This document shows, in pieces, positions 21,791 to 25,232 of a stretch of DNA of 27,235 nt. A program made the translations under genes and the position numbers. The notes beneath the pieces were generated by a model. That model made no database searches and was not told where the DNA came from. It saw nothing but the letters and a program-made list of their open reading frames with translations. This DNA comes from a virus (lineage: Duplodnaviria; Caudoviricetes). The stretch is from positions 1 through 27,235 of IMG/VR virus record IMGVR_UViG_3300014309_000021; one strand, written 5' to 3'. Position 1 is the first letter of the stretch, and every line of letters starts with the position of its first letter.

Positions 21791-21964
21791 ATGTACTATT
21801 TTTTACTATTATTATCAGCTATGGCAGTATCGTTTGGAGCCGTTTTGTGGGGCGGATTGTACGGATTTCTACTATTGCGGGTTGGGCTGTTTGGGTGTTT
21901 TACTACTGCTACATGGATCAGCAGGCATAAGGAGGTCAAGGATGACAAAGATCAAACTTTATAA
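21791..21964 (+). CDS. Small membrane protein (57 aa)
   Basis: AAGGAG SD; hydrophobic; explains the spurious N-terminus of track ORF 21834. Confidence 0.5.
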   Translation: MYYFLLLLSAMAVSFGAVLWGGLYGFLLLRVGLFGCFTTATWISRHKEVKDDKDQTL

Positions 21965-22469
21965 CTTAACAGAGCGTAAATTTGTCGCAAATGTTGACGG
22001 CAATCTTAATGCCAAAATGGATAATTGTATTATGGTTGAGTTGGATAGCGATATGGATATCAAGGCGACGCTGAGGGCTTATAATGACATGTTGACCGCC
22101 AAAGATATAATCAGTCATAAATTAGAGTCCGAGTTAAACCAGAGAACCGCCCTACAAGCTGCAAACAACGACGGAATGCCACATGGGACGGAAACAAGTG
22201 ATCCGGTATATAAAAAAGTACTACTACTATTACAACAAGACGCGATGATCAAAAAGCTGGAATGCGATTTGTGCCGGGTAAAAAATGATTTGTTGGTAAT
22301 TAATATTATGTTTGACCAGCTGGTGCCGGAAGAAAAAACCATCACGGAATACTACTACATAAAAGGTTACAATTGGAGTAAAATAGCCGGGATGGTGCAT
22401 TATAGCCGTGCAGAATGCTTCCGAAAACGCGATTCCGCCCTGCAAAAAATGCAACTATTTTTATGTTAA
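21942..22469 (+). CDS. ArpU/RinA-like (DUF1492-type) late transcriptional activator
   Basis: DGMPHG..SDPV, C-terminal sigma-region-4-like YIKGYNWSKIAGMVHYSRAECFRKRDSAL; last gene of the early operon. Confidence 0.8.
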   Translation: MTKIKLYNLTERKFVANVDGNLNAKMDNCIMVELDSDMDIKATLRAYNDMLTAKDIISHKLESELNQRTALQAANNDGMPHGTETSDPVYKKVLLLLQQDAMIKKLECDLCRVKNDLLVINIMFDQLVPEEKTITEYYYIKGYNWSKIAGMVHYSRAECFRKRDSALQKMQLFLC

Positions 22470-22511: not shown

Positions 22512-22661
22512 CTACTTTTTTTGTTTTCCCATATCGGCCTCAATCAAACGCTGAATGATATTGGCCGCGCTGGTATATTTTCCGGCTTGAGTTTCTTCAT
22601 AAGCTTTTTCGCGCAGATATTTTACATGTTCCGGCTGCAAATAAGTTGTAAATTTTGGCAT
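22512..22661 (-). CDS. 49-aa ribbon-helix-helix-like regulator (MPKFTTYLQPEHVKYLREKAYEE...SAANIIQRLIEADM)
   Basis: AAAGGAGGG SD, own promoter; beta-helix-helix pattern; missed by the ORF track. Confidence 0.7.
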   Translation of the reverse strand: MPKFTTYLQPEHVKYLREKAYEETQAGKYTSAANIIQRLIEADMGKQKK

Positions 22662-22682: not shown

Positions 22683-22711
22683 ATTGTACCATATATACGT
22701 TTACCCGTCAA
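22683..22711 (-). promoter_or_regulatory. SigA promoter of the RHH gene
   Basis: TTGACG-17-TACAAT with a CGTATATA box in the spacer. Confidence 0.75.
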
Positions 22712-22792
22712 GAAAATTGCTTATATAATATATGAAAATAAAAACAGCAGATAAAAGGCATAAAAAATAATTAAAAACTTTTTAAAAAGTAC

Positions 22793-22821
22793 TTGACGTA
22801 TAGAAGTATATACGGTATAAT
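22793..22821 (+). promoter_or_regulatory. Strong SigA promoter of the accessory cassette with an operator palindrome
   Basis: A-rich UP element, TTGACG-17-TATAAT; CGTATA-N6-TATACG inverted repeat at 22797-22814. Confidence 0.85.
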
Positions 22822-22857: not shown

Positions 22858-23064
22858 ATGATTAAATACCAAATAGAGGGCTATTTCTCAACAAGGCAAT
22901 GTGGAAAAATCAAAGAAAAGCTGCAAGGCAAAACCTACATGAATTTTAATATTGAATGCGGCGGGGTGGCTGGAAACAATGAAATTGTTGTAACCAGCAA
23001 TTACGACGGGACGAACGAAGATTTAAAGGAAATGTTTATACATTATGTTTTGAATTGTTTATAA
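22858..23064 (+). CDS. Small hypothetical protein (cassette gene 1)
   Basis: First gene after the promoter. Confidence 0.7.
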   Translation: MIKYQIEGYFSTRQCGKIKEKLQGKTYMNFNIECGGVAGNNEIVVTSNYDGTNEDLKEMFIHYVLNCL

Positions 23065-23140
23065 CTCAGTCGGCGGTCGGATCGTGCGGGGGCGAAAGCC
23101 CCACTCTAAGAAGGGGACTAGAAAGGAAAGGGGATTCGAA

Positions 23141-23378: not shown

Positions 23379-23558
23379 ATGTTTAAATATTTTTACAGAC
23401 TGCGTCCGCCGGGGCCGGGATGTCAGCCAAGAGGGTTTATAGAGGTCAAGGAGGAGGATATAAACCAAGGGCAGCATTATTGGGGCTGGGTTACGTATGA
23501 TCGGGAGTTATCTCCTGCTGAGATTAATAATTATGATTTGGAGGTATCGCAATGTTAA
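23379..23558 (+). CDS. Stand-alone DarA C-terminal-like domain protein
   Basis: Y.YRLRPPGPGCQPRG...WGWVTYDRELS..EI..YDL matches the DarA_C polyvalent-protein domain pattern. Confidence 0.7.
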   Translation: MFKYFYRLRPPGPGCQPRGFIEVKEEDINQGQHYWGWVTYDRELSPAEINNYDLEVSQC

Positions 23559-23830
23559 AATTTCTTTGGAACGGAATAAAACTTGATGGTAAACTCTACC
23601 GGGCGCGATACTCGCCAAATGAGCTAATCAATCAACCAAACGGGACGATTACAATTTATGCAAAAGATTACGGACGGTTTCCTAAAATTGAGGGGCTGAC
23701 GGTACAAAATGATAGCGACTTAATGACTGATTACCATGCTAAAGATTTAATCAAGGTAACACCTAATAACCCGCATTATGCAGCGGTAAAAGCTGCACTG
23801 GATGCGGAAAATAGACATTATAGCCGGTGA
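23552..23830 (+). CDS. Conserved-looking small MGE protein (KF.WNGIK...TITIYAKDY...NDSD.MTDY)
   Basis: GGAGG SD; function unknown. Confidence 0.7.
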   Translation: MLKFLWNGIKLDGKLYRARYSPNELINQPNGTITIYAKDYGRFPKIEGLTVQNDSDLMTDYHAKDLIKVTPNNPHYAAVKAALDAENRHYSR

Positions 23831-23841
23831 ATTACGGCTTA

Positions 23842-23897
23842 TTTATTATAAATGAGTCTAAAGACCTATTTATAATAAAGATAATAAATGTTATACT
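23842..23897 (+). promoter_or_regulatory. Internal promoter with a 12-bp inverted repeat
   Basis: TTTATTATAAAT...ATTTATAATAAA; TTTATA-17-TATACT with TG extension. Confidence 0.5.
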
Positions 23898-23947: not shown

Positions 23948-24211
23948 ATGAAAAACGTTTATTATATCTTAATGCCGCGAGGGTTCACAAACGAAGCGAA
24001 AATTATCTGCGTGGAATCCGATAGAGAACAAGAGTTAAAAAGCTGGCTGGAACAGAAACATGTAGGGCAGGAAAACATCAACGCGATTTACCGCCGTATG
24101 TCGCTCAAAGAGGCTAAAAAGTATGAAAAAAGCTACTGTGAATTTGACGATTATAAAAACGATTCGGCTTGCAGAGCTTACTATTTTAACCCCAAGCAAA
24201 ATCAATATTAG
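23948..24211 (+). CDS. Small hypothetical protein
   Basis: AAGGAG SD. Confidence 0.7.
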   Translation: MKNVYYILMPRGFTNEAKIICVESDREQELKSWLEQKHVGQENINAIYRRMSLKEAKKYEKSYCEFDDYKNDSACRAYYFNPKQNQY

Positions 24212-24263
24212 CAGAGAGCGCCCCACGGGGCGTAATGCGCCGGAGGTCAGTCTCAAGTCTGGC
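24211..24263 (+). ncRNA. Twister ribozyme, circularly permuted (type-P5-like)
   Basis: GCA-GA-GAG / P1 CGCCC-CACG-GGGCG / UAA-UGC / P4 GUCA...UGGC with loop GUCUCAAGUC; T1 CUC:GAG; predicted cut between U24233 and A24234. Confidence 0.75.
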
Positions 24264-24285
24264 GCAAAAAAAGGAGGAAATGAAA

Positions 24286-24480
24286 ATGTTATCTAATAAA
24301 CTTTCGGAAAACATTAAAAAAGAATTATCAAATTGTCAGACTATCGAAGATTTGGCGCGTGTTATCGGTTCAGCGCATTGGTTTGGAATTGAAGAATGTT
24401 TTTGTTATGAGGTGGATTGTGAAAGCAACCGAAATCCTATTTATAACGAGCAAGGAGAACGGATTTATCCCGTTAAATAA
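24286..24480 (+). CDS. Small hypothetical protein
   Basis: AAGGAGG SD just after the ribozyme. Confidence 0.65.
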   Translation: MLSNKLSENIKKELSNCQTIEDLARVIGSAHWFGIEECFCYEVDCESNRNPIYNEQGERIYPVK

Positions 24481-24498: not shown

Positions 24499-24807
24499 AT
24501 GCCAAACTGTGCAACATGTGGCAAGGATGTTAAAGGCGGAATCAGCATGGGCGGTACGCTCCTATGCCGGGAGTGTGCGGCAGATGTCGAGATTGAGATT
24601 GAGCGACTTCGGGCAGAGGGAAAGCAGGTGAACGTCGCAATAATAGCGCGTAAGATGTTTAGAGAGTCTTGCACGCAGGGTGGTTACAAGCTAAACGACA
24701 TCCCCAAGGAGTTGTGGGATGCAGCCAAACATAAGGCCGTGGATAAGGGGATTAGTTTGCGGGAGTTGATATTGCAAGCAATCAAGGAGTTTATAGACCG
24801 GGATTAA
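24499..24807 (+). CDS. Zinc-finger plus C-terminal Arc/RHH DNA-binding protein
   Basis: CATC...CREC; YKLNDIPKELWDAAKHKAVDKGISLRELILQAIKEF. Confidence 0.75.
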   Translation: MPNCATCGKDVKGGISMGGTLLCRECAADVEIEIERLRAEGKQVNVAIIARKMFRESCTQGGYKLNDIPKELWDAAKHKAVDKGISLRELILQAIKEFIDRD

Positions 24808-24822
24808 TCCGGTTATTTTTTT
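24797..24822 (+). terminator. Terminator closing the accessory cassette
   Basis: ACCGGG-ATTAA-TCCGGT followed by TATTTTTTT. Confidence 0.75.
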
Positions 24823-24824
24823 GC

Positions 24825-25158: not shown

Positions 25159-25232
25159 TGGCCTTTAGTTTAACGGTAAAACCTGCGCCTTATATGCGTA
25201 TGTTGACAGTTCGATTCTGTCAGGGTCTACCA
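25159..25232 (+). tRNA. tRNA-Ile, anticodon UAU
   Basis: D-stem GTTT/AAAC, anticodon stem TGCGC/GCGTA with loop CT-TAT-AT, T-arm GACAG-TTCGATT-CTGTC, discriminator A, encoded CCA; U1:U72 mismatch. Confidence 0.85.

Follow-up and report, generated by a model that had tools for sequence, protein, structure and literature searches.

We identified the segment at positions 24211-24263 (+), from its sequence and predicted pairing, as a circularly permuted type-P5 twister ribozyme (Rfam RF02684), and we see an about even chance that this ribozyme, with a P2 stem of 3 bp and fitted tightly between a stop codon and a ribosome-binding site, cuts the mRNA of a phage small-gene cassette at U24233/A24234, only partly and in competition with a rival 9-bp hairpin. 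The cutting would probably be only partial because the active fold has, by prediction, to compete with this hairpin. The window, i.e., the whole stretch of 27,235 nucleotides analyzed here, is the whole IMG/VR record, which is linear and estimated to be 28% complete. As a twister, the element is one more member of a described class that is well known in phages, and it is mostly ordinary; type-P5 twisters have been described previously (PMC5408937, PMC10085705). Its parts are as follows:

24211-24213 (+): P2 5' strand GCA, forming a 3-bp P2 with 24236-24238 (sequence and Rfam alignment)
24214-24215 (+): conserved GA, i.e., G24214 at the general-base position and an A (alignment to the Rfam consensus; roles from PMC5408937)
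24216-24218 (+): T1 strand GAG, pairing with CUC at 24252-24254
24219-24232 (+): P1 hairpin of 5 bp (24219-24223/24228-24232) with a CACG loop (folding)
24233-24235 (+): U^AA cleavage strand, predicted cut 24233/24234 (class consensus, PMC5408937)
24236-24240 (+): P2 3' strand UGC (24236-24238) and T2 5' strand (G24239, C24240)
24246-24263 (+): P4 of 5 bp, including one U·G, with an 8-nt loop (24251-24258), predicted at -5.9 kcal/mol

By sequence and folding, the GCA, GA, GAG, P1 with its CACG loop, UAA, UGC and CUC all lie where the original prediction had placed them, and its reading of the whole as a permuted twister agrees with both the RF02684 match and the structure of type P5. When the class definition given in passages of PMC5408937 is applied, the essential stems P1, P2 and P4 are present with 5, 3 and 5 bp, respectively; pseudoknot T1, which in the class consists of three Watson-Crick pairs plus an A·A (PMC5408937), connects L1 and L4 through 24216-24218/24252-24254; a two-pair pseudoknot T2 (G24239·U24258 and C24240-G24257) is stacked on P2; and G24214, A24234 and G24250-C24259 align to the Rfam consensus. 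The proposed cut site and general base likewise agree with the class by alignment (PMC5408937), and both are predicted. The P4 loop holds the partners of T1 (24252-24254) and T2 (24257-24258), and the GUCA/UGGC pairing first proposed for P4 stands but is extended to 5 bp by G24250-C24259, which closes the stem. The permutation is that of type P5, in which the RNA starts at P2', ends at P4' and has P1 closed by a loop.

Compared with the RF02684 class of Roth et al. (2014), via its descriptions in PMC5408937 and PMC6765202, the element of the window has the same order (P2'-GA-T1-P1-UAA-P2-T2-P4/L4), both pseudoknots, the G-C pair closing L4, the U^A site, an optional P5 and a location among phage genes. 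It differs in having a P2 of 3 pairs where the Rfam consensus has 4, A-U as the middle T1 pair, G·U as the first T2 pair, a weak P4 and a 9-bp rival strand that overlaps the P4 3' strand. Where crystallized type-P1/P3 twisters have four Watson-Crick P2 pairs, A24210 stands opposite G24239 in the window; P2 imperfections were tolerated in a screen of natural twisters (PMC11662667). No P5 stem is present in the window, as originally noted, but this is unremarkable: P5 is optional and its absence is normal for the type. Pairing of the P5 flanks in 345 listed relatives was barely above that of swapped controls (-2.04 vs. -1.91 kcal/mol).

The Rfam Twister-P5 model matched 24210-24262 with 37.3 bits (E = 1.6e-4 against all Rfam families). 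The covariance-model check suggested in the original prediction thus gave a match, albeit one 0.3 bit under the gathering score of 37.6 bits, and this automatic-annotation score (at least 37.6 bits) is not used here as the class definition. The Twister-P5 model found no second twister in the virus record, and no covariance match to twister-sister, pistol, hammerhead, hatchet or HDV-like ribozymes was found in the whole window at E up to 5.

Relatives were collected with a pattern that fixed the P2', UAAUGC and L4 words, which are conserved by construction and provide no independent evidence. The scan gave at least 164 loci in viral contigs, 41 in named genomes and 143 in metagenomes (14 of 64 parts). 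Among the 384 distinct matches listed, 366 had 60 nt downstream; after removal of the window itself and of 19 matches to which neither register applied, 346 listed relatives remained. Their middle T1 pair is G-C in 279, A-U, as in the window, in 64 and G·U in 3 (it is U-A in the related phage contigs L360, L387 and L514), and at the first T2 position 216 have A-U, 108 G-C and 20 G·U, so that 344 of 346 pair and 2 are mismatched. The variable pair of T1 was Watson-Crick in 343 of the 346 listed relatives, compared to 240 with shuffled partners, and that of T2 in 324 compared to 189, both counts with kinship not removed. Both pseudoknots covary among the listed relatives, as do the P4 pairs, and P2 has 3 pairs in 295 and 4 pairs in 51 of them.

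These relatives also bear on the register of T2, which the original prediction had drawn as GCC against GUC with one mismatch. This was a mis-register: the middle pair of that arrangement forms in none of the 295 listed relatives with a 3-bp P2 and its flanking pairs form in 88 and 32, whereas the first pair of the corrected T2 forms in 294 of the 295. The corrected T2 is as the class description requires, with two bases bulged beside the invariant G-C pair (PMC5408937). What had been taken for a mismatch that may slow cleavage is a G·U wobble, and in the natural-twister screen G·U or U·G in the 2-bp T2 pseudoknot left cleavage roughly unchanged (PMC11662667). The substitution C24240A, put forward as a T2 repair, would instead be a knock-out that destroys the pseudoknot, since T2 pairs C24240 with G24257; judged from the pairing, the true restoration of G-C at T2 is U24258C. 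The corrected register spares a wrong control mutant.

The related phage contig G001 shares the regulator, a divergent Arc-like gene and a 92-aa gene with the window and carries two twisters over the cut-off (43 and 39.3 bits). The second (39.3 bits) is 80% identical to that of the window and has G-C as its first T2 pair, and two P4 pairs differ on both sides between the two siblings with pairing kept. Twisters of 49-62 bits are found in the same kind of cassette in L360, L387 and L391. A chance resemblance to a ribozyme, for which the score below the gathering score and the sub-cut-off matches of the Twister-P5 model in 7 of 14 control genomes (E up to 1) could be cited, was rejected as extremely improbable: the single-family search in this record gave E = 3.7e-8, the core pattern matched once in the window sequence and in none of 100 shuffles, the sibling is over the cut-off and both pseudoknots covary.

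Other RNA matches were seen in related cassettes. L514 482-550 is a twister-sister over the cut-off (43.3 bits) and L386 4202-4258 is a weak hammerhead-like match (25.7 bits). An Rfam int-alpA RNA over the cut-off (53.8 bits) lies at L354 37-100 (-), in G001, and is absent from the window.

In L513 and L514, a twister lies one gene before the ortholog of the regulator, the intervening gene being different in each, and the 87-aa ortholog of L513 (43%) ends on the first G of the ribozyme. These twisters occupy the same junction as that of the window:

L513 1641-1701: divergent twister, 25.7 bits, with a T1 C-A mismatch and P4 unformed
L514 1625-1678: divergent twister, 34 bits, with an interrupted P4 (-0.1 kcal/mol)

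The L513 copy has C-G/C-G as T2 and in addition a P3 hairpin. P4 is thus weak in all three pre-regulator twisters (-5.9 kcal/mol in the window, -0.1 in L514, unformed in L513), while it reaches -7.5 to -11.1 kcal/mol in four upstream-junction twisters and -6.6 in the G001 sibling. With three cases, tuning and decay of the weak junction twisters cannot be told apart.

The ribozyme of the window is embedded in the following features:

23822-23846 (+): terminator-like hairpin with a T-rich tail, downstream of the 92-aa gene (consensus scan; putative function)
23869-23897 (+): promoter-like site, 9/12, with TG before the -10, which would start the three-gene unit that holds the ribozyme
23948-24211 (+): 87-aa ORF, whose UAG stop supplies the first G of P2
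24272-24277 (+): Shine-Dalgarno (SD) sequence AGGAGG, predicted to be unpaired in the 3' product (pairing probability 0.001)
24286-24480 (+): 64-aa ORF, first gene of the predicted 3' product, of no PHROG or Pfam family
24499-24807 (+): 102-aa ORF with a Gin-like Cys motif and an Arc/RHH-like C-terminus
24796-24824 (+): terminator-like hairpin with a T tract at the end of the unit, also conserved in L360 and G001

As originally predicted, the ribozyme starts on the stop codon of the 87-aa ORF (the last base of UAG), and it ends 8 nt before AGGAGG. This layout of stop, ribozyme and SD is a family rule. In 262 of the 328 listed relatives whose flank was long enough, the stop of an upstream ORF falls at -9 to +1 of the first ribozyme G, and in 82 exactly on it, as in the window (controls: 4-14 for anchors shifted 40-100 nt upstream and 29/331 on the opposite strand); 294 of 336 have, within 60 nt, an SD and a start that opens at least 30 codons. 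The terminator-like site at 23822, the promoter-like site at 23869-23897 and the terminator-like site at 24796 suggest that the genes of 87, 64 and 102 aa form a putative transcription unit of their own of ~0.9 kb. Promoter-like sites of this kind are weak evidence alone (8 found vs. 7.7 expected); the matching place in L360 is a near-consensus promoter. An AT-rich inverted repeat at 23842-23880 overlaps the -35 of this site, where L360 has a different palindrome, and the repeat is a possible operator for the RHH-like protein of the unit.

The 87-aa ORF had no PHROG match and no significant Pfam match. It has two relatives at 51-54% in addition to the L513 ortholog; these came via the regulator gene, and back-translated patterns found none in viral contigs. 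The place of the 64-aa ORF is taken by other genes in L513 and L514. The original description of the 102-aa ORF as an RHH regulator is tentative, its matches being weak (phrog_6506, E = 0.0025; PF10764, E = 0.0018, below the cut-off). Its orthologs are 91% identical in L513 and 82% in L514, and none of its relatives was found in named genomes.

Genes for an integrase, a repressor, Sak4, a DnaD-like protein and an HNH protein identify the window, by its gene content, as part of a temperate phage. A host among Clostridia was not borne out. The evidence on the host is thin: Sak4 shares 71% identity with a gene of a Megamonas MAG, the 92-aa cassette gene shares 44% with one of a Clostridiaceae MAG, and these two single matches point to a host in the Bacillota. 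Upstream of the three-gene unit are:

21948-22469: phrog_36 regulator, after which the small-gene cassette comes
22793-22821: strong promoter-like site, 11/12, at the start of the small-gene cassette
23379-23558 (+): stand-alone DarA_C domain gene (PF18789, E = 3.4e-11, over the Pfam cut-off)

The DarA_C gene hints at a possible anti-defense role for the cassette. The divergent Arc-like gene at 22512-22661 (-), with back-to-back promoter-like sites at 22683-22821, is conserved in G001 and L360, where this region also contains additional genes and a long run of CTA-type triplets, both absent from the window. A tRNA-Ile gene (anticodon UAU, encoded CCA) is found at 25159-25232 (+), with a terminator-like hairpin downstream of it.

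Further analyses revealed a competing strand that the original prediction had missed:

24258-24266 (+): 9-bp complement of 24236-24244, predicted at -15.1 kcal/mol

The hairpin formed by 24236-24244/24258-24266 and the stems P2, T2 and P4 are mutually exclusive, and once position 24265 is included it is the minimum-energy fold (-15.1 vs. -5.9 kcal/mol for P4). The minimal RNA 24210-24263 also prefers a slipped helix of 6 bp (-8.4 vs. -5.9 kcal/mol), for which reason the ribozyme 24210-24263 may do hardly any cutting. The best native-compatible fold lies 8.2 kcal/mol above the best fold overall, a gap reached by 1 of 269 listed relatives (median 2.5). It should be noted that these energies omit pseudoknots and Mg2+ and rank sequences but do not predict activity. 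The G001 sibling has a 6-bp version of the hairpin with one G·U. With the 9-bp hairpin formed, the predicted 3' product has 2 unpaired bases at its 5' end (pairing probability 0.94) and a free SD. Folding is, according to these models, the likely weak point of the ribozyme.

Given partial cutting, the sequence of events would be as follows. The RNA would fold and cut during transcription through the G/A acid-base chemistry of its class, and a fraction would be cut at U24233/A24234 before the rival strand captures the RNA, dividing the three-gene message of ~0.9 kb into ~330 nt with the 87-aa gene and ~590 nt with the 64-aa gene and the Gin/RHH gene. The ~330-nt product would end in the P1 hairpin, as a putative 3' cap, and a cyclic phosphate, and the ~590-nt product would begin with a 5'-OH. 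Molecules not cut in time would be trapped uncut in the rival hairpin. After the cut, the same hairpin, 2 nt from the new 5' end, could release the upstream product while keeping the SD free, and would shield the 5'-OH end from 5' exonuclease. Overall, this would give gene-sized mRNAs with uncoupled lifetimes, and some message would stay uncut at the junction ahead of the regulator. The stability of its own that the original prediction assigned to the downstream transcript could be either higher or lower. Cleavage by a twister placed in a 5' UTR altered neither the mRNA nor the protein level in E. coli (PMC5052635).

The same folding results could also describe a decaying relic, i.e., a twister that was active in the past but by now mostly adopts the 9-bp hairpin instead and has lost any useful degree of cutting. 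This reading is consistent with a native-vs.-best energy gap that is the second largest among 270 sequences, with a P4 that is in the weakest 6% (P4 as weak as -5.9 kcal/mol in 19 of 346 listed relatives) and with the similarly poor scores of the junction twisters of L513 and L514. We regard it as unlikely, given that the catalytic and pseudoknot positions of the window are all intact, that P1, P4, T1 and T2 vary between related phages by pair-keeping changes, and that the core has been kept at the junction in three lineages while the surrounding genes were swapped. An efficient cut could instead reduce expression of the 64-aa gene and the regulator gene compared with the 87-aa gene, if RNase J degrades the 5'-OH product as in the glmS ribozyme-riboswitch of Bacillota. 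In that system self-cleavage likewise leaves a 5'-OH upstream of a coding sequence, and RNase J1, for which a 5'-OH end can serve as an entry site in Bacillota, degrades the product and is stopped by 5' roadblocks (PMC3997798); the host indicated by the two single matches fits. The element of the window, however, has no cofactor site, is intercistronic rather than in a 5' leader, and has a 5' end that is predicted to be paired and not exposed, with 2 free bases and a free SD. RNase J1 requires several free 5' bases. Moreover, the same ribozyme form is found on contigs assigned to many phyla, and the arrays of several twister copies that many phage contigs carry before strong SDs fit punctuation better than destruction. 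We consider such down-regulation improbable.

Translation might also gate the cut. A ribosome halted on the UAG would sit over P2', G24214 and the T1 strand. It would free 24236-24238 for the rival strand and lock the message uncut, so that only untranslated messages would be cut. The stop positions in the listed relatives (82 of 328 stop exactly on the first G and 262 no more than 10 nt away) and the mutually exclusive folds are in line with such a switch. However, the stop position is just as well explained by how closely phage genes are packed, and a strong rival strand is missing in most relatives. In Bacillota, transcription runs ahead of the first ribosome. If it does so here, twister cleavage at >1 per min (PMC5408937) may precede that ribosome. 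The gated switch seems to us quite improbable, and we retain the partial cutting of the message by the type-P5 twister as the preferred reading.

Whether strands like that of the window are found elsewhere was addressed in those listed relatives with at least 4 P4 pairs and an SD no more than 45 nt away, which numbered 305, 269 of them unique. Between P4 and the SD, a Watson-Crick complement of at least 5 bp to the first nine bases of the 3' product is present in 29 of the 269 (11%), compared to 3.9 with shuffled linkers (maximum 10 in 200), 6.1 in the pre-SD DNA of ribozyme-free genes (maximum 15), 16.0 with swapped 5' ends (maximum 23) and 4 with reversed sequences. The complement ends within 6 nt of the SD in 26 of the 29 and tends to follow the letters of the ribozyme (AC/GT 13/37, GG/CC 7/23, but GC/GC only 3/20). 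When kin were merged into 93 clusters, 13 had a complement, and with one sequence per cluster the count was 9.6 vs. 1.8 and 4.6; by folding, the UGC of the product pairs downstream at >0.9 in 38 of 269 vs. 11.7. A link with host GC content is weak (14/98 below 45% GC, 15/171 above). The signal is real, although only a minority carries the trait. The window itself is outside these 29 cases, as its strand overlaps P4 and its linker-only measure is 3 bp. Its complementary strand may therefore be a private accident, given that the complement is an 11% trait and the linker-only score just 3 bp. The idea that the downstream strand and the SD rebuild a type-P1 twister was discarded, as the window has an A run where GA and the T1 strand are needed. 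No report of such a strand was found in the literature searched, the scope of which excluded the discovery papers (Roth 2014; Weinberg 2015/2017).

A broader proposal, which we put forward as possible but doubtful, is that some phage type-P5 twisters carry a second, downstream P2/T2 complement before the SD that covaries with their own strand and would serve for product release and as a 5'-end cap after the cut, and as a kinetic brake before it. The window would be an extreme case, related phages would keep the junction before the Gin/RHH gene deliberately leaky by different routes, and ribozyme strength would be tuned per junction to set gene stoichiometry.

A second RNA-like element, designated element B, lies in the same cassette:

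23068-23119 (+): four-way-junction RNA-like element, in the spacer between the stop at 23064 and the next SD

It sits in the same type of stop-to-SD slot as the twister, and this spacer is conserved where the flanking genes are not. Full copies are present in 8 contigs (the window, G001, L386, L387, L391/L513, L363/L519, L514 and L524), and at least 4 of the other seven have a twister or twister-sister over the cut-off within 1.3 kb. The fold consists of a closing stem and three hairpins, with 98.2% of cells paired in 7 sequences and both partners changed in two pairs (as high in 9-10 of 500 shuffles); L524 adds two further both-side changes, in the closing stem. Three copies held out of model R1 scored 57, 75 and 49 bits. 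The copy of the window departs at 5 of 7 bases of the otherwise conserved first loop. No Rfam family came near its cut-off, the 120 pattern matches in named genomes were all judged chance and none had the 3' arm, and the element was not found in the literature searched, to which the discovery papers (Roth 2014; Weinberg 2015/2017) did not belong. The 3' arm alone, at ~20 bits, is seen before other SDs at L360 4039-4088 (-), L363 377-425 and L370 764-835. Since only the 3' arm recurs there, this suggests that the arm can travel alone. Element B is a candidate processing, stabilizing or self-cleaving RNA; self-cleavage is improbable, and a protein-binding or stabilizing role ranks higher.

In section 13 of PMC6765202, the processing of polycistronic phage-linked transcripts by ribozymes is described as proposed only, and the role of ribozymes in bacteria and phages as largely elusive. 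Like the hammerheads and twisters of that proposal, the element of the window lies between small phage genes on the coding strand, and other ribozyme classes are found next to such twisters (the twister-sister of L514). The proposal, as given there, names no mechanism, whereas here the placement is quantified and a capping or attenuating strand is proposed for the window. Splitting of the mRNA by 24211-24263 is likely, as it fits the family-wide placement, and has already been suggested in print (PMC6765202). The three-gene unit offers a cheap test of whether the cut raises or lowers the downstream genes and of whether the rival strand sets the fraction cut or the lifetime of the product. The neighboring four-way-junction RNA may outvalue the twister. 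Should the downstream strand have been selected as a cap or brake, natural twisters would have a part that has gone unrecognized, and it would provide a design rule for ribozyme insulators in Bacillota.
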